Shown: positions 3,994 through 62,094 of the stretch, piece by piece
Position numbering within the stretch: position 1 is the stretch's first letter
Layout: every line of letters starts with the position of its first letter
Source: Octopus vulgaris
Taxonomy: Eukaryota
Direction: 5' to 3'
NCBI GenBank assembly: GCA_951406725.2
Contig: OX597824.1
Coordinates: 22,382,001 to 22,446,000, forward strand
Length of the DNA: 64,000 bases
Program-made: the position numbers and the translations under genes
The notes under the pieces: model-generated
What the model was told of the DNA's origin: nothing
The model's database searches: none
What the model saw: only the letters and a program-made list of their open reading frames with translations

Positions 3994-5589
3994 TTCCAGC
4001 GCATCTCCCTTGCTATCCTTTGCAGTAACACTTTTTCCATTTTACCTGCTGATGCCATGATAAATGTTTCTATACTGTGAGGTGCCAAAACTGACACAGG
4101 TGCCTGGTGCAGCTCTGCAACTCAATGGACCCTGTCAAACTATCCAACCCATACCAGCATGGAAAATGGATGTTCACAGACAATGATAATGATGGTGAAG
4201 AATTTTACACATAGCGTTCTTTTAATTATCCTCAATATTTTACTGTAGGTTCCTCTATTATATTACATTGGCATATTTGATCATAATGTTTACTTTATTC
4301 TGTTGCAATAGGTTCTTGCCGTATTATATTATATTATATTATATATTATATTATATTATATTATATTACACATTATATTATATTACATATTATATTATAT
4401 TATATTATTTAATATTCCTATATGTTTTTTTATTATGCCGCTATGAATAATCAGCCATTCTTGTGTTATTGTTTTGCTCAAGCTGTCCTCTTTCTTCATA
4501 TATATTATGCATATGTGTGTGTGTATGTATGTGTGTAGGTATATATGTATATACACGTACACACGCACATATTTCCCATACAGTAATTATTTTTGTTCAC
4601 TATTTTTTTTCGTCTCGTTCTACCTCTTAACTAAATATCTTCCATACACACACACCACACACACACACATGTATATAAGTATATATAAGTATATACACAT
4701 ATATACATACATATATATACATGTACATATACATCGACTCACACACACACACATATACAAATATATATGTATATATATATATATATATACATACACATAC
4801 ATCCATAAATATATACATAAATACATATATACATACATACATACATATGTGTTTGTGTGTGTGTATGTATCACAATTAATTTCACAGATTCACCACTTGT
4901 ACACTACACCACCACCACTACCACCATCATCACCACTCCACCATTACCCAGCCATTTTCTGTCCTTTAATGATCCTATCCTGGCTTCATTTTGCTTTAAT
5001 CATCCACATATTATTGATAAATTACTTTGCATTCCTAAATGACTAACCTTTAACCCTCCAACTAAAAGCATCCTTTTAAACATTAGACTTCAGCCTCTCC
5101 CACCATCCTATGTAACGGCCTCTGTTCTCAAATTTCCTTTCTGTTTATCTTTTATCTTTTGCTTGTTTCAGTCATTGGACTATGGGCCATGCTGGAGCAC
5201 CGTGTTGAAAGATCTGAAACAAGCAGTTGTAGGTATGGCTGTGTGGTAAGATGTATGCGCCTGAAGGCGGTGAGCTGGCAGAAACGTTAGCACGCCAGGC
5301 GAAATGCTTATCGGTATTTCGTCTGTCGTTACGTTCTAAGTTCAAATTCCACCAAGGTTGACTTTGCCTTTCATCCTTTCGGGGTTGATAAATTAAGTAC
5401 CAGTTACACAAACCAGATATAATGCAGAGAAGAAACATGTCTTCTGGCTTTATGTTCTGAATTCAAATTCTTATTTCTTTATTGCTCACAAGGGGCTAAA
5501 CATAGAGGGGACAAACTAAGACAGACAAAGGGATTAAGTCGATTACATGGACCCCAGTATGTAACTGGTACTTAATTTACTAAATATAA

Positions 5590-6004
5590 GGCGGCGAGCT
5601 GGCAGAAACGTTAGCACGCCGGGCGAAATGCGTAGCTGTATTTCGTCAGCCGCTACGTTCTGAGATCGTATTCCGCCGAGGTCGACTTTACCTTTCATCT
5701 TTTCAGGGTCGATAAATTAAGTACCAGTTACACACGGGGGTCGATGTAATCGACATAATACCTATGTCTGTCCTTGTTTGTCCCCTCTATGTTTAGCCCC
5801 TTGTGGGTAATAAAGAAATAGGTATTTCATCTGCCATTACATTCTAAGTTCAAATTCCACCAAGGTCGACTTTGCCTTTCATCTTTTCAGGGTTGATAAA
5901 TTAAGTACAAGTTACACACTGGGGTCGATGTAATCGACTTAATCCCTTTGTGTGTCCTTGTTTGTCCCCTCTATGTTTAGCCCCTTGCAGGCAATAAAGA
6001 AATA
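5590..6004 (+). mobile_element. SINE family B dimer (partial B copies also at 5266-5580)
   Basis: GGCGGCGAGCTGGCAGAAACGTTAGC head, junction GAAATA-GG-TATTTC, tail CCCCTTGCAGGCAATAAAGAAATA. Confidence 0.85.
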
Positions 6005-6268
6005 AGAAGTATGCATCCCAACAACATAGTCCCAGGTTCTCTCTCAAATCTTGTTAAAGACTTTCAACCCAGCCCTTCTTCCCTAGATTTTGTGCACTCT
6101 GCAAATTCGTCCTATTTGGTAATTTTCATCAAGTAGGATGTCCAGGCAAGACAATCTCTCTATGTCTGGCTAGCTATGTCTTTAGCCCTCTTCCTTCTCC
6201 ACACTTCCCCTTTCCTCCTCCTCCTCTGTATATCTTATACAAAAATCATGTTTCTACTTTATATTATA

Positions 6269-8252: not shown

Positions 8253-9145
8253 TACAAGGCACGATGGGTAAATTGTCAGCATTTTGTAGTCTTAATTTCA
8301 CATATAGGCATTGTTTGTTTTTGATCTTGTCAACTGCACAGTATAGTAGGGTCAGTTGGGAATCATTTGTCAGGAAAACAGCACCATGATGCAGTTCATT
8401 CTGCCAGAAATTTGGAAATGACATGCTGTACTGATTGGCATTCATGCCAGAAGCTCCAATACAAACATTTCAGAGTGTTTGGGTGTGAATCTGAGGACAA
8501 TGCAGAGGATTTGGAAAGAGCTGGCTGAGTTTAATAATGATTACGAAGGTATGGCAGCTCAGGAAAACTCACTCCGATCATTCTGATAACAAAAGGACTC
8601 TTGAATTTGTTGGTGAGATCCAGGCCTTGATTGACAACCATCCCTCTAAGCCAATCAGGTTCATCACCAGGGACACGGGAGTGTCTGAGTTTCTTATCCA
8701 GCAAGTAGTGCATGAAGACATTGGGTATTCCTCATACAAAATGAGAAGGGGCCAATTTTTTATCCCAAGCCATCAAGGACAAATTTTTGAACCAACTCAA
8801 ACATCCCCTCCAGTCGAACATGCTTTGGTTTTTCTCAGACAAGAAAAATTTCTGCTAGGTTCAGATGGTGAACACACAGAACAACTGTTGGCTTGCTGTG
8901 CCCTCAAAACATGTATCAAGAGTGATAAAAATCAAACATCCAGTCAACATCATGGTGTTTGGAGTGATCCCTAGTGATGGTGATGTTATACCTCCATTCA
9001 TCTTCCCACATGGCCTCAGGCTAAACACAAAGGCCTACATCACATGCCTGGAGGAGGTAGTGCTGCCCTGGGTGAAGAGGGTGGCTGCTGGAAGACTCTA
9101 TTTCTGGCAACAGGACTCTGCACCATGCCACACAAGCAGAAGAAC
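8253..9145 (+). pseudogene. Degenerate Tc1/mariner-superfamily (maT/DD37D-like) transposase, 3'-truncated by a SINE A
   Basis: Frameshifted pieces WFFSDKKNF, KHPVNIMVFGVIPSDGDVIPPFIFPHGLRLN and LPWVKRVAAGRLYFWQQDSAPCHTSRRT. Probable TA|CAAGG left end. Confidence 0.8.
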
Positions 9146-19390: not shown

Positions 19391-20658
19391 TCTCACTAAG
19401 ATATATAGCAAAAAAAAGAAGAAATTATAAATACTTTACAAGTGCATGAATGGCTGTTTATCTAAGAAGCTCATTTTGTGAATCAAGTGGTTTTGGGTTC
19501 TATCCCATGGCCCACCACCTTGAGCAAGCATTTTCTACTTACAGCATTAGGTTGATCAATGCCCTGTGAGTGAACTTGTAGAAGGAGACTGTGCAAAAAC
19601 CCGTCAAATGTGTGTGCATGTGCCTTTGTGTTTGTACCCATCAATGCTTGACAACTGATGTTGGTTTGTTTACATCCCCATGACTTAGCAATTCAGCAAA
19701 AGCGACCAATAGAATAAGCCCCGGACTTAAAAACAAATTTTGGGGCCAATTTATTCAACCAGACCCTTCAAGACATTGCCCCAGCATGGGTGCAGCCCAA
19801 TGACTGAAACAAGAAAAAGATAAAAAAAACAAAGGATGATAGTAATGTTGTTTCTCTATTTTACGCTTTATTTAAAAATTTTTTTTTGGAAAACTAAATT
19901 AGTTCAAATTCAATGTTTTGATGATTAATTCATACAACAAGATATAATATTAGAAGTGGGATGGTTGGGTCTGTTCATCATAATTCAGTCAATATTTTCT
20001 GCACAATATTAACAATATTACAATATATCATCGATATGGAATATATAATTATGTATCCTAAACAGAGTTGATTCATCCTGATTCTTATGATATTACATGA
20101 AAGAGCAATAAAACATTAGTCAGTGGCTGGAATCTTCTTGTTTTCCTCTGTTGTCATAATTAACACCAAAACACTGATGAATCATAATATCAATGAAAGG
20201 TTGAAGAATAACATTGATTAAAAGTAAAATGATATACTGCTTATACACAAGAATACATATACAAAAACTTTTGGCCTATACTCACTTTTACTCTCTTTTA
20301 CTTGTTTCAGTCATTTGACTGCGGCCATGCTGGAGCACCGCCTTTAGTCGAGCAAATCGACCCCCGGAACTTATTCTTTGTAAGCCCAGTACTTATTCTT
20401 TCGGTCTCTTTTGCCGAACCGCTAAGTGACGGGGACGTAAACACACCAGCATCGGTTGTCTGGCAATGCTAGGGGGACAAACACACACACACATACATAT
20501 ATATATATACATATATACGACAGGCTTCTTTCAGTTTCCGTCTACCAAATCCACTCACAAGGCATTGGTCGGCCCGGGGCTATAGCAGAAGACACTTGCC
20601 CAAGATGTCACACAGTGGGACAGAACCCGGAACCAGGTGGTTGGTTAGCAAGCTACTT

Positions 20659-22638
20659 TATTTCATATATAATTTGCCACTAAGGCAGTACACAGAGTAG
20701 CTGCGGGCTGGACAAAAAACATAAATGAATGATGGTGATGGACAAGGATGGTGATGAGAGAAGACGAAAGCGCCCGCCGACTTCCGCTTCTCTAAGACAT
20801 TGTTCTTTTTTTTCAAAGATTTTACAAAAAATTCCAAAATTTTACATATGTTATAAGAGGCAATAAATCTCTTTCTCAATACAAAAATGTTCAATAGGTT
20901 TACGTTACCTGGCCGACCAGCCCTCTTGCTTCACCAAGGCAATCGTTCTTCGTCAGGCCTTTATATACAGGTATAAATTGAAATGAGTCCTCCGGGAAGG
21001 AATTCGCGATTCTGCACAGATCGTTATCGAGTATGACCTCCGCAGCCAGCTGCGAAGGCCACCCGGGGTCCTCTGTGCAGGACCGAAGTCCCTTCCATTG
21101 GCCTCTCTTTCTCATTTTACGTATTTAATTTTCTAATGTTCCTCCTTTGTAGAAGAGGACTACATATTGTTTCTCCGGCGGCACACCCGCCGAGGAGACT
21201 TGGGAGACGCCGTCTGCGTGTTACAATCTGCTGGCGGCGTCCCGTTTCTCTTTTTCTTTTTCTTTTTACCTTGGGCCTCAGGAGGTTGAGGTTCCGGTGT
21301 TGTACACACCGGGTCCTCTTTTTCTCCCGCAGCCTCCGGTTCTTTTGGTGGGTCACCATTGCTCCCCACTTTTCTTTTTCTTGTGGAGGAAGTCACCGCA
21401 TCCTCTTTTTGTTTCTCTCCCTCCATTGGGGGTGCAGGGAGAGGCTCCAACATCAACTGCTCCAGGATCCTACTTTGGTTCTTGGGGCAGTTCTTCTTAA
21501 TATGGCCGGTCTCCAGGCACAGGTGACACTTGGGGGGGCGTCCCTCAAGCATCACCGGATACCTGTACCCGGCCATCCTCAAAAAGTCCGGTAAAACCAG
21601 ACTTTTGGCTGACTGGGTCCATAGGGTCAAAACAGCTTTTGACCCCTCCCAATCAGCCACAGACTGCACTTTTACGCTCAGTAGCTTGGAACTGCTACCA
21701 TCCAAGCCCCAGCAGATAGAGTCCTCTATCCACTCGGGCTCAACGCCTGGTGGTAAGCCGCAGATCCAAGCTCTCAACAGTTTTTCTCCCATATAATTGG
21801 GGAGAAACAATATCTCTTCGCCCTCGATAGGCTGGCTTGCAAATTCGCAAGCTGCTTTAGGGGAGTCAAATAGCAACCAAACCATTGCGTATTTAACTCC
21901 CCGAGTGATATATTTAACGGCTGGCATGTAGTCTGCCAGCTCGTTTAAAATAGTAGCCTTTGGGAAGACTGCTATGGTGTCGAGCGACTTCGAGTATGTC
22001 CTCAACACCACAGTCTTCCTTTCCAGCTCTTTTAAATATTTTTTGGGAGGTGTTAGGTCCCACACAATAAATTCCTTTGCCATTGCGAAACGGAATCCAA
22101 TAAAAGTTCAAAAGTGTAAGAAAATGAATAAGATAGAAAGAGGGAGAAGAGAAAACACAACAGAAGAGAAGAATTACAATAAAATAACAGTTCAAAAGAG
22201 TTCTTTTTAAAAATAACGATAGCTTGAAGAAGAGTTCAAATTCAGCAAAGGAATTAATTATTTTGGCCGAAAAGGTACTCCTGGCCAAACGTTCAACAGT
22301 CTTTGGTGCTTCCTGGTAAATCCCAATGAAAACAGTCCTTGGTTATCGTTGGTAATCTCCTCGAAAGCAAATAATTTTTGAGGAGGGGCTACGCCTCCTC
22401 AAAAAACACAATTCTCACTGCAAAGTGAGTCTTTACACTCGACCACAGGCAGGAAAATGTCCGGAGCAAAGTGGAGTCTATTACTTGCTAAAAAATATTA
22501 AATGCAAAGCAATAAACTTCACTAAGCCCCCAAAAAAACATCAAACACCTACCTGTAGTCGAGTCTCAAAAGTTCAATATTTCACGTAAAAACACGTGAC
22601 AACTGGAGCAGCCAAAAAACACGTCCGAACAAGTCGAA
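20659..22638 (-). mobile_element. Complete ORF1-only non-LTR retroelement (HAL1-like, L1/Tx1-type)
   Basis: 16-bp TSD GGTTAGCAAGCTACTT (20643-20658 and 22639-22654). 5' end TTCGACTTGTTCGGACGTG...GCTGCTCC, ~555-nt 5'UTR, gag-like ORF, 3' end ...GAAATA. No endonuclease or RT sequence recognisable. Confidence 0.85.
21160..22083 (-). CDS. ORF1/gag-like nucleic-acid-binding protein, 307 aa, with CCHC zinc knuckle
   Basis: CHLCLETGHIKKNC = CX2CX4HX4C preceded by EGRPPK, followed by a basic/proline-rich tail. A probable frameshifted C-terminal extension (EKQYVVLFYKGGTLEN*IRKMRKRGQW...) runs to 20900. Confidence 0.8.
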   Translation of the reverse strand: MAKEFIVWDLTPPKKYLKELERKTVVLRTYSKSLDTIAVFPKATILNELADYMPAVKYITRGVKYAMVWLLFDSPKAACEFASQPIEGEEILFLPNYMGEKLLRAWICGLPPGVEPEWIEDSICWGLDGSSSKLLSVKVQSVADWEGSKAVLTLWTQSAKSLVLPDFLRMAGYRYPVMLEGRPPKCHLCLETGHIKKNCPKNQSRILEQLMLEPLPAPPMEGEKQKEDAVTSSTRKRKVGSNGDPPKEPEAAGEKEDPVCTTPEPQPPEAQGKKKKKKRNGTPPADCNTQTASPKSPRRVCRRRNNM

Positions 22639-22717
22639 GGTTAGCAAGCTACTTACCACACAGCCACTCCTGCGCCTATGTAGAAGTTTTGATGGCATCC
22701 ATATGAATATCTGAACA

Positions 22718-23180
22718 GGCATAGGAGTGGCTGTGTGGTAAGTAGCTTGCTTACCAACCACATGGCTCCGGGTTCAGTCCAAGTGCGTGGCACCTTGGGC
22801 AAGTGTCTTCTACTATAGCCTCGGGCAGACCAAAGCCTTGTGAGTGGATTTGGTAGACGGAAACTGAAAGAAGCCCGTCGCATATATATGTATATACATG
22901 TGTGTGTGTGTGTATGTGTGTGTGTAAGTGTGTGTGTGTGTGTGTATGCGTGTGTATGTTTGTGTGTCTGTATTTGTCCCCCCCAACAATGCTTGACAAC
23001 CAATGCTGGTGTGTTCAGGCCCCTCACCCCCATAACCTAGCAGTTCGACAAAAAGGGACCAATAGAATAAGTACTAGGCTTACAAAGATTAAGTCCTGGG
23101 GTCGATTTGCTCGACTAAAGGCAGTGCTCCAGCATGGCCTCAGTCAAATGACTGAAACAAGAGTAAAGAATAAAGAGAGT
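22718..23180 (+). mobile_element. SINE family A
   Basis: Full-length; head-to-head with the split copy, about 40 bp away. Confidence 0.9.
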
Positions 23181-23479
23181 CAGAGATTTCATTTTCAAAC
23201 CGTTGTAGTGCTAAACGATTTTTGGTATCAAAGTAGCACAAAATGGTGACCTGGCAGAGTTGTTAACCCATTGGGCAAAACGATTGGTGACATTTTATTT
23301 GTCTTTATGTTCAGAGTTCAAATTTTACTGAGGTTGGCTTTGCCTTTCAGCTATTTGGGAGGTTAATAAAATAAGTACCAATTGAGTACCGAGGTTGATG
23401 TAATCGACTTGCTTCCTCCCTTGGAATTGCTGGCCTTGTACCAAAATTTGAAACCAATTTTAAAACTACACAAGGCATA

Positions 23480-60883: not shown

Positions 60884-62094
60884 GGATCTTTTCGGTTTGA
60901 ACGGCAGTTTTTTTCTAGCGGTGTCATATGAAATTGTCACCCATAATTATGACCCTAGTATCGATCTATTGCATTTCAATCTGTTTTAGGGTTAGGGGTG
61001 AGGGAAGGGTGTCTTTTTTTTCTTCAGAAATGTAAATAAACCCAATCTGTTTCTTAAACGAGGGACATATTCATACGGCACAGAATGTTTTTTTTTACCT
61101 CAATAGACGTCAGTGATTGGTTGAAATTGCAGAAATTGAAGATCTTACGGTTAATATCTAGATCCGCACCCGGTTGGAAAAATGGAAACGAAAATGTGTA
61201 ACAGTTGTAAGGCATCGTATATTGACGGAATAAGACGGAAAAAAAGCGCGCTGACAAACGGGGGGGTTGGGTTGGGGGGAGGGGGCTCGGGAAATTCCCA
61301 GGATCAACCGTAGAGGATCCACGCCCAGGTGGCAAAAATGGAAAAAAATATGTGTAACAGGTGTAAGGCATCGTATATTGAATGAATATGACGAAAAAAA
61401 AGCGCGCTGACAAAGGGGGGGGGCTCGGAAAATTGCCTACGATTTAAAGAAAAATTTACCATCAATTTTCACCATTGTGTTTCTGATTCGCGACCCCATG
61501 TCGAATTTATCGATTTTTTTCAGAACTGGGGGAACTTTTCAAAATTTTCGCTGCGTTAGTTTTGAATTATGATATTGGGCTATGTGTGTGAAATGCGTTT
61601 AAAATGGTGAAAATTGATGGTAAATTTTTCTTTAAATCGTAGGCAATTTTCCGAGCCCCCTTCCCCCCCCCCCCCCCCGCCCGTTTGTCAGCGCGCTTTT
61701 TTTTCGTCATATTCCTTCAATATACGGTGCCTTACACCTGTTACACATATTTTTTTCCATTTTTGCCACCTGGGCGTGGATCCTCTACGGTTGATCCTGG
61801 GAATTTCCCGAGCCCCCTCCCCCCAACCCAACCCCCCCGTTTGTCAGCGCGCTTTTTTTCCGTCTTATTTCGTCAATATACGATGCCTTACAACTGTTAC
61901 ACATTTTCGTTTCCATTTTTCCCACCGGGTGCGGATCTAGATATTAACCGATCTTACAAACCATATAATTTTCTCAATAAAGTCAAGAGAAAAAAATGTT
62001 TTATAAACACATTTTCTACCAGTATACGAAGTTTAAAAGTATTTAGTTACGTGGAAATTATTTTTAAAAAATGCCGTTTAAACCGAAAAGATCC
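60884..62094. mobile_element. Same MITE, copy 2, containing a nested foldback element
   Basis: GGATCTTTTCGGTTTGAACGGCA...TGCCGTTTAAACCGAAAAGATCC; colinear with copy 1 outside 61149-61949. Confidence 0.85.
61149..61949. mobile_element. Foldback DNA transposon derivative (Merlin-like)
   Basis: 8-bp TSD GATCTTAC; GGTTAATATCTAGATCCGCACCCGG termini; ~330-bp inverted arms with internal direct subrepeats. Confidence 0.85.

Follow-up and report, generated by a model that had tools for sequence, protein, structure and literature searches.

The window analysed here (64,000 nucleotides of Octopus vulgaris contig OX597824.1, positions 22,382,001 to 22,446,000) contains a slightly decayed copy of an old, multi-copy family of ORF1-only retroposons, referred to as family A. 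We put at about 80% the probability that this ORF1-only family occupies a single base position of a SINE head, its insertion there likely being carried out in trans by an L1/Tx1-type LINE of 5.4 kb that has the same tail and the same target. The size of the family, the length of its members, the absence of ORF2, the site specificity, the tandem stacking, the selection on ORF1, the common tail and the unequal target copies were all observed directly.

Results

All features of the element lie on the minus strand. The non-autonomous retroposon occupies 20659..22638, and these 1980 bp are bracketed, as a sequence-only reading had reported, by identical 16-mers: the 5' target copy at 22639..22654 and the 3' copy, which is the host SINE's own sequence, at 20643..20658. 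The bases immediately outside both 16-mers mismatch. A 16-bp match between the halves of a multicopy SINE is weak proof alone, and it is the genome-wide census that carries weight. The host, SINE A, is divided into a 5' part (22655..22676), with an 11-mer at 22656-22666 that we take to be A-box-like, and a remainder (20295..20642), with a presumably B-box-like 11-mer at 20617-20627, a CA/TA microsatellite and the tail; the repeat does sit between the box-like motifs of a co-oriented SINE, as had been proposed. ARAGORN detected no tRNA in the window, so the argument for a tRNA-derived head is confined to these 11-mers. Over 20200-23300, where the head is split, Rfam gave no tRNA match, and the element region returned only chance hairpin matches below threshold.

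Within the element, a 555-bp 5' UTR (22084..22638) precedes an ORF of 307 aa (21160..22083), which has an N-terminal predicted RNA-binding region, a CCHC knuckle (21487-21528; a weak zf-CCHC match, E 0.0037, under the Pfam cut-off) and a basic linker. Comparison with an intact relative of 395 aa (L006) reveals one base missing at 21193/21192 and an in-frame stop at 21125-21127. The remaining ORF1, a family-specific C-terminal domain, stands behind the 1-bp frameshift at 20900..21192, with 20900 as its former end. No EN/RT is encoded in the three sense frames of the element. The sequence-only reading had thus described the coding part correctly, including a length of ~400 aa before the frameshift and stop. 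The 3' UTR carries the motif AGCTACT (20696..20702), the reverse complement of target positions 2-8, and a stem-loop with a 4-bp stem and a 5-nt loop (20675..20687) that is common to the helper LINE. An AATAAA runs across the 3' junction (20657..20662), with four bases from the element and two from the target; no poly(A) tail was found at the window copy or at any junction seen.

A DNA search for the element, in which 40 of 2682 candidates were scored, gave at least 83 matches, and many of these cover almost the full 1980 bp at 74-91%; a search with the ORF1 protein gave at least 131 (129 of 13439 candidates). Most family members are 2.0-2.3 kb long. In 50 loci of the 131 ORF1 matches (30 with 1.5-kb flanks and 20 as 9.9-kb stretches), no ORF2 was found between ORF1 and the 3' end, so the copies examined do not run on into ORF2, and dozens of colinear ~2-kb copies support the earlier suggestion that the element transposed in its ORF1-only form. 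Two junction-motif searches yielded 868 matches versus 8 in the control and 227 versus 1, with 2 of 30 sampled from the second being an unrelated element. Upstream of the first 30 of the 868 junctions there were 17 cases of family A or B ORF1, 7 of ORF2 and 6 of neither within 1.5 kb. The family has amplified as ORF1-only elements in many independent insertions, and its 5' ends are modular and exchanged among subfamilies.

These insertions converge on one base of the SINE head, where 29 of the 30 best DNA matches end (picked blind to their flanks, window copy included), as do 27 of 30 protein matches from an overlapping set, the other three being without a detectable 3' end; the background is 21 target sites per 128,000 strand-bases in the window. 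The flanks are therefore not random, and the proposed targeting of SINE heads is borne out. A flank-blind tail pattern gave 349 matches, 189 of them followed by AAGTAG. Of the first 30 tail-pattern matches, 11 were without AAGTAG (10 read AAGAA- and one a decayed form), and at least 9 of these 11 clearly represent the equivalent position in an older SINE subfamily. One copy (L027) is off-site, has six bases in common with the target and carries its own 16-bp duplication. Different families and the helper stack in tandem at rebuilt sites, and there are at least 50,823 exact empty SINE heads versus roughly a thousand junctions. Self-targeting by SINE A was considered separately and rejected, since not one of 197 SINE A tails has its end there.

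The 5' target copy is often donor-derived. Among 46 SINE-flanked insertions, the 5' and 3' copies are identical in 15, and a 15-nt variant is present on the 5' side in 9 and on the 3' side in none; the empty heads at the fetched loci lack this variant altogether. A test of donor origin at target base 13 alone (6 vs 1, p 0.125) was not significant. The initial interpretation of the flanking repeat as a target site duplication is corrected in this respect. The 5'-truncated copies L198, L178 and L027 do have true duplications, which reach 16 bp and contain private variants.

A DPE-like GGACGTG (22620..22626) occupies position 29 in a count that begins with the first A in the 5' target copy, and transcription is predicted to start at ~22653. 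Of 77 motif-bearing 5' ends, 44 have it at position 29; these include 25 different 12-nt spacers and come from passengers as well as older helpers. In the other 33 the motif is found at 20-21 (17 ends of one shortened 5' type), at 17 (12 ends, family B) or at 28 or 30 (4 ends); family B and the young helper have donor-type 5' copies without the motif at 29. The fixed distance from the first base of the target suggests, at the level of sequence, a promoter that is completed by the target, and DPEs of insect LINE promoters are given at +28 to +32 in an excerpt of PMC4748587. A Pol III model, combining the SINE A box with an element-borne B box, was rejected on three grounds: RGACGTG is what is conserved as the core, several 5' types have lost the B-box-like letters, and a T run comes next.

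The comparison of dN/dS among copies that the sequence-only reading had proposed (24 intact ORFs, pairs with dS 0.1-1.5) gave a median of 0.20 in the RNA-binding/CCHC region, with 245/245 pairs below 1, the pairs being not independent and the method ignoring transition bias. ORF1 is under purifying selection, and its C-terminal domain is weakly constrained (median 0.62). Pfam assigned zf-CCHC, not mammalian Transposase_22, to the ORF1s of passengers and helper. One family C ORF1 had a weak RRM_3 match (E 0.0014), and ZCCHC3-RBD look-alikes scored 0.88-0.90 where the fold model is unreliable (pLDDT under 50); an excerpt of PMC5203782 links type I ORF1 (RRM plus CCHC) to the Tx1 clade. AlphaFold modelling with 23 sequences had a mean pLDDT of 43 and was confident only at residues 305-395. 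With this C-terminal domain, Foldseek returned no match at E 0.001, VIA-align reached a best Z of 4.5 with small alpha/beta folds, and an Atlas search gave no usable match. In the ORF1 tree, families A and B form a separate long-branched clade (support 99/100), which is the only grouping we trust there, with 8 of 22 branches open, L295 represented by a poorly aligned slice and P0212 omitted (no CCHC match). The one close relative elsewhere is an Octopus sinensis protein (63%), and a profile search gave 126 matches, mainly distant unnamed CCHC proteins. No RNA record was found for a young family B copy among those listed; assembled contigs match family B and the window copy in part, and starts, ends and strand are not readable from them.

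The putative helper is a young 5.4-kb EN/RT LINE, which has its target and tail in common with the passengers and is represented by at least 40 copies that match at 96-100% across the 3' 1.7 kb. One copy (L157) has an intact ORF1 of 467 aa and an ORF2 of 1133 aa with EN, RT and zf-RVT domains, whose best solved relative is human L1 ORF2p (E 1e-66 versus 1e-20 for R2). An AP endonuclease, an RT, a C-terminal zinc finger and the closest relationship to L1 place it in the L1/Tx1 group, and it is likely a member of Tx1; the nearest named relative is an Argonauta hypothetical protein (64%), with no named Tx1 reference among the matches. Its insertion is sequence-specific with a ~16-bp duplication, 20 of 20 fetched copies end at the target site or at a tandem rebuilt site, and its last ~40 nt align with the tail of the window element. 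Of 192 3' ends, 162 retain the 3' stem while their loops vary, in a search that required the right arm. Helper ORF1 also contains a CCHC and is homologous to that of family A (27% identical, E 1e-19). Because the identity is only 27%, the young LINE is not the direct parent of family A, and because target and tail are common and the two stack in tandem, it is likely the helper. No ORF2-bearing element with a family A or B ORF1 was found among 50 passenger loci and the young and older helpers. A 5' part was retained by older helpers at 4 of 20 loci, with one more keeping only a C-terminal piece of ORF1, and these older helpers with a 5' part and the young helper carry the other ORF1 type.

Discussion

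In the mechanism that we propose, RNA polymerase II would start inside the 5' target copy, placed by the DPE-like motif, and would read through the 3' end, where the AATAAA spans the junction, so that the RNA would both begin and end with target. The element's own ORF1 would coat the RNA in cis, while helper ORF2 would bind the 3' stem-loop. Nicking by the endonuclease would take place on the bottom strand, immediately left of AAG(T/A)AG, which in the window is the left edge of the 3' target copy; pairing of the read-through tail with the primer may then account for a junction that is precise and free of poly(A), and the top strand would be cut as far as 16 bases downstream. Through its target-like 5' sequence the cDNA end could anneal to the overhang, by which the 5' copy can take donor letters, and each insertion would rebuild the target and allow several families to stack head to tail.

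We give slightly less than even odds to specificity by the helper endonuclease alone, as in other Tx1 elements, with the target-like RNA ends as a by-product that has no aiming role. Endonuclease specificity is named as the main determinant for such elements in an excerpt of PMC4494074, heavily 5'-truncated copies are on target, and family C, which has no complementary tail motif, is still on site at 8/8 junctions. However, the off-site copy L027, with its six target bases only, fits short pairing as well as a loose nuclease, and, although SINE B has the ~60-nt tail of the helper, the SINE A site accounts for only 363 of about 101,678 exact tail matches, a weak control, as another LINE may move SINE B and 8 of 82 SINE B ends lie in its own head. 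Specificity by the endonuclease alone alters only the steps of RNA read-through, nicking and priming, and cDNA annealing. It is rather improbable that the antisense motif of the 3' UTR helps to choose the site by pairing with the read-through tail or the displaced top strand. A reverse-complement match of at least 7 bases to the target is found in 104/192 tails versus 83/3840 shuffles, the base in the motif corresponds to the target variant both in helpers (34/34 and 4/4) and in family A (64/65 and 17/19 readable, 13 more being unreadable), and the predicted probability of pairing with read-through is 0.78-0.99 for L081, L241 and L078. But the covariation comes from related copies and amounts to about two independent changes, hairpin-templated correction during copying could produce it without function, old B-type copies mismatch the target at AAGAAG sites (5/5), and the predicted pairing falls to 0.34 in L029, 0.09 in L036 and 0.05 in the window copy. 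The antisense motif tracks SINE subfamily changes in two lineages and is dispensable in others.

Two alternative histories are refuted. If SINE head, 2-kb insert and SINE body moved as one composite from a single old insertion, both flanks would always be of one SINE type, and they are; this very improbable history fails because 5'-truncated copies directly adjoin the upstream SINE head with duplications of their own, near-identical young family B copies lie in SINEs with differing variants, old and young SINE subfamilies are both occupied, distinct families and the helper stack at rebuilt sites, and the off-site copy has its own duplication. Still less credible is that a full LINE, once inserted, lost its interior in a single event at this locus. 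Helper copies with such deletions do occur singly (L293, L295, L305 and L310), but the many colinear copies, the selection on ORF1 across subfamilies and the separate ORF1 clade are incompatible with it.

We tentatively consider, as an idea that is rather less likely than not to be right, that the targeting is due to a split promoter: the initiator would come from the SINE head and the DPE, at a fixed distance, from the element, the target would also complete the poly(A) signal, the antisense tag would track SINE evolution, and the outcome would be RNA-assisted, self-reinforcing targeting by an ORF1-only guild parasitising a SINE. Proper transcription would then occur only after landing on this exact base, and the RNA would carry target at both ends plus an antisense tag.

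The following comparisons draw on excerpts of the cited papers. ORF1-present non-autonomous LINEs, such as HAL1 (half-L1), HeT-A and Ag-Sponge, have arisen in several independent lineages (PMC5753468, PMC5786205); like family A, they have ORF1 only and keep a LINE 3' end. Family A belongs to this category by its ORF1 without EN/RT, its amplification, the selection on ORF1 and a 3' end in common with an autonomous LINE. The label "HAL1-like" given by the sequence-only reading is apt for an amplified ORF1-only element with a selected ORF1 and does not hold in the strict sense of HAL1, a mammalian L1 derivative, since the ORF1 of family A is of the CCHC-knuckle type and not a Transposase_22 and there is no poly(A) tail. 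Family A also differs in its strictly site-specific insertion and in an ORF1 only 27% identical to that of the present helper. Crocodilian Tx1-Mar LINEs and SINEU-3 use one common site in a Mariner DNA transposon, other targets being LTR elements and Harbinger (PMC4494074). They resemble the octopus system in that a LINE and its passenger have a common site in an abundant mobile element, with a 16-bp duplication, tandem insertions around one duplication and ~90% on target, but the octopus target is the internal promoter region of a SINE and its passengers are elements with a selected ORF1, not non-coding SINEs. We found no published description of SINE-head targeting by LINEs or passengers.

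Dictyostelium TRE5-A.2 is likewise ORF1-only, targeted to Pol III units and trans-mobilised, as is probable for family A, and requires a structured 3' module (PMC3159450). However, TRE5-A integrates ~50 bp upstream of tRNA genes via an ORF1-TFIIIB contact, whereas the octopus elements insert at a fixed sequence within the head itself, and TRE5-A.2 derives directly from its helper, unlike family A. In R2, R1 and SART1, 3' target sequence in the RNA aids accurate priming (PMC6795142, PMC7265360), to which our model is likened; read-through target sequence improves insertion of R2Ol, and upstream target sequence in the RNA shapes the 5' junctions of R2 (PMC6795142). R2 obtains its flanks from rRNA co-transcription and a ribozyme, whereas a promoter inside the target is proposed for the octopus elements, and the internal motifs of SART1 are sense to the target, whereas the octopus tail motif is antisense (PMC6795142, PMC7265360).

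ORF1-only passengers (HAL1, HeT-A, TRE5-A.2) and transposon-targeting Tx1 LINEs are already known. Because each ingredient has a precedent and the occupancy is too low to suppress the SINE, we regard the system as a notable variant and not a new class. The usual roles are exchanged in it, as a SINE offers LINEs and coding passengers a safe place to land that is dispersed over the genome, and strong selection on ORF1 combined with a borrowed ORF2 provides a natural test of why half-LINEs retain ORF1. Since there are intact young copies of both helper and passengers, and the target has two variants, the shares of endonuclease and RNA pairing in site choice are testable, a question that bears on site-specific gene insertion tools.

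An ORF1-only family

Two identical target 16-mers on the minus strand (5' copy at 22639-22654, 3' copy at 20643-20658) enclose 1980 bp that read as a 5' UTR of 555 bp, a 307-aa ORF and a short 3' UTR that lacks poly(A), which bears out the repeat and gene layout described in the sequence-only reading; the CCHC knuckle match in the 307-aa ORF is weak. Compared with the 395-aa ORF1 of an intact relative (L006), the frame of the window copy is shifted by 1 bp at 21193/21192 and interrupted by a stop codon at 21125-21127, both on the minus strand. The closest ORF1 relative, and the sole close one, is an Octopus sinensis protein (63%). The insert interrupts SINE A, its host, between an A-box-like and a B-box-like word.

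The same reading had asked whether other copies continue into an ORF2, in which case the window copy would be a one-off deletion product. It is one of a multi-copy family and not such a product. The DNA search of the window's genome gave at least 83 matches (40 of 2682 candidates scored), many near full length and 74-91% identical, and the ORF1 protein search at least 131 (129 of 13439 candidates scored); in none of the 50 protein-match loci examined is ORF1 followed by an ORF2 before the 3' end is reached, and complete copies among them are mostly 2.0-2.3 kb long (range 1.75-2.7 kb). There are several ORF1-only lineages: family A, to which the window copy belongs, B (54% to A; some of its copies are young and near-identical) and C (28% to A). 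In the ORF1 tree, A and B form one clade on a long branch (support 99/100). The comparison of dN/dS proposed earlier, run on 24 intact ORFs, gave medians of 0.20 in the RNA-binding/CCHC region, with all 245 pairs below 1, 0.37 in the linker and 0.62 in the C-terminal domain, for pairs that are non-independent, and with transition bias ignored.

The C-terminus of family A/B ORF1 (residues 305-395 of the predicted protein P0004, window region 20900-21170) is confidently predicted to be a small alpha/beta domain, which is missing from the ORF1 of the helper LINE described below and for which no clear structural or sequence relative was found. Fully open chimeric ORF1s join a family A N-terminus to a B2-type C-terminus (L044:707-1897, L099:6383-7621, L100:4584-5822) and, together with 5' UTR types common to A and B, point to recombination or template switching.

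One target in the SINE head and a probable helper LINE

These passengers and a probable helper LINE form a guild that uses one base of the SINE head. The flanks, which might have been random, proved specific, and the sequence-only reading holds. Among the best 30 DNA matches, a set chosen blind to flank that contains the window copy, 29 stop at this one 16-mer and one is off-site, with 19 of the 29 running into SINE body and 10 into another element or other sequence. Among 30 protein matches, a set overlapping the first, 27 end at the target and the other three have no detectable 3' end. The background in the window is 21 target sites per 128,000 strand-bases. A flank-blind tail pattern matched 349 times genome-wide, 189 times followed by AAGTAG; 11 of the first 30 matches were not (ten AAGAA- and one decayed form), and at least nine of these plainly occupy the equivalent position in an older subfamily of the SINE. 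Two junction patterns hit 868 and 227 sites, and their reversed controls 8 and 1; the pattern counts include helpers and, in 2 of 30 sampled from the 227, an unrelated element. Exact empty heads number 50,823 in the genome. Truncated copies that have duplications of their own, varied host SINEs and mixed tandem arrays rule out hitchhiking within a composite unit; Kojima relied on the same tests for SINEU-3 (PMC4494074).

The helper, with ORF1 and ORF2, adjoins one family A copy at a rebuilt target. It is about 5.4 kb long and has at least 40 copies, 96-100% identical over the 3' 1.7 kb; at L157 both ORFs are open (467 and 1133 aa). The domains of ORF2 are endonuclease, RT and zf-RVT, and its similarity to human L1 ORF2p far exceeds that to R2. 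All 20 fetched copies end at the target or a rebuilt target, and the last ~40 bases align with the tail of the window element. A 4-bp stem in the tail, with a variable loop, is kept in 162 of 192 3' ends, in a search that required its right arm and with a compensatory pair in only two ends. Tx1 membership of the helper is probable and would fit its ORF1 type, duplication length and specificity. Because its ORF1 is only 27% identical to that of family A, and older helper subfamilies have the same non-A/B type, an ORF2-bearing parent with A/B-type ORF1 was not found among young or older helpers.

SINE B (5588-6009, plus strand) has ~60 nt of 3' tail in common with the helper, with 15 further tails in the window (e.g., 26242 and 57195, plus; 36515 and 46601, minus). 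This tail has 101,678 exact matches genome-wide, 363 of them at the SINE A site or 3 bases off; SINE B often lies in 184-bp tandem repeats, and 8 of 82 sampled ends are in its own head. SINE A does not land in itself here, as none of 197 SINE A tails has its end at the target. In a long array (L038, L039; G000:C7:13457100-13478900), ORF1-only members of families A, B-like and C and a SINE B tail are stacked at rebuilt targets, and L150 (G000:C1:111115391-111118416) is a very short fold-back insertion of two inverted element 3' ends at one target.

Origin of the target copies and possible mechanism

The perfect 16-bp TSD had been read as a mark of transposition; the repeat is real, but across the family the 5' copy is partly donor-derived. 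Among 46 insertions with SINE on both sides, the two target copies are identical in 15. A 15-nt variant occurs on the 5' side in 9/46, on the 3' side in 0/46 and in none of the empty heads within the loci fetched. Four insertions have a CTCGCT variant on the 5' side (3' side 0, empty heads 0/46), and a 17-nt variant recurs on the 5' side of young helpers. Target base 13 taken by itself is not significant (6 vs 1, p 0.125), and genuine duplications, at most 16 bp long, occur at 5'-truncated copies. Top-strand cleavage would fall no more than 16 bases downstream, and the cDNA, whose RNA would have begun in target sequence, may anneal at the cut target, as described for R2 (PMC6795142).

Most tails also contain an antisense motif, the reverse complement of the target's first bases (at least 7 bases in 104/192 tails versus 83/3840 shuffles), which is a real feature. 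With 14 junctions left unassigned, its variable base matches the target variant in 34/34 and 4/4 helpers and in 64/65 and 17/19 readable family A cases, and in 0/5 old B copies; family C lacks the motif at all eight junctions. Templated correction is a neutral alternative for the covariation. Predicted pairing of the motif with read-through runs from 0.05 in the window copy up to 0.99. AATAAA at the 3' end is completed by target sequence, so transcripts are predicted to end inside the SINE. Of the 77 5' ends that hold an RGACGTG-type, DPE-like word (22620-22626, minus strand, in the window copy), 44 have it at position 29, counted from the first A of the 5' copy; these come from both passengers and older helpers and differ in the 12-nt spacer, of which there are 25 versions. 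As insect LINE promoter DPEs lie at +28 to +32 (PMC4748587), the predicted start is the second A of the target. Against a split-promoter start, the word lies elsewhere in 33/77, and donor-type 5' copies also occur in family B and in the young helper, neither of which has the word at 29. The putative start-site word resembles an initiator. Split-promoter, RNA-assisted targeting is a tentative and rather doubtful reading. Within the 5' ends of the young helper (L157/L201-L220) lies a second 16-mer that resembles the target; a 12-nt spacer and a DPE-like word come after it, an arrangement that looks as though a new front had been added to an older 5' end.

Relation to known systems and other features

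As reported in the sources cited here, ORF1-only LINE derivatives occur in three clades (PMC5786205, PMC5753468), TRE5-A.2 is one that targets tRNA genes (PMC3159450), and in crocodilians Tx1 LINEs have other transposons as their targets, make 16-bp duplications and come with passengers (PMC4494074); related literature includes PMC3747384, PMC7265360 and PMC5203782. Two cephalopod repeat surveys name L1-Tx1, with no targets given in the portions concerned (PMC13282606, PMC8967140). Our search of paper texts found nothing on SINE-head targeting or these families, and the supplementary octopus repeat library may hold them.

At 22655-22770 in the window, the host SINE A head is head to head with a second SINE A copy of opposite orientation across a gap of 40 bp, and the pair makes up a long inverted repeat. 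An open frame at 8495-8974 (plus strand) resembles, by eye, a decayed Tc1/mariner transposase fragment, and a 276-bp inverted repeat (61148-61423 and 61675-61950, 98% complementary, 251 bp apart) is probably a young MITE.
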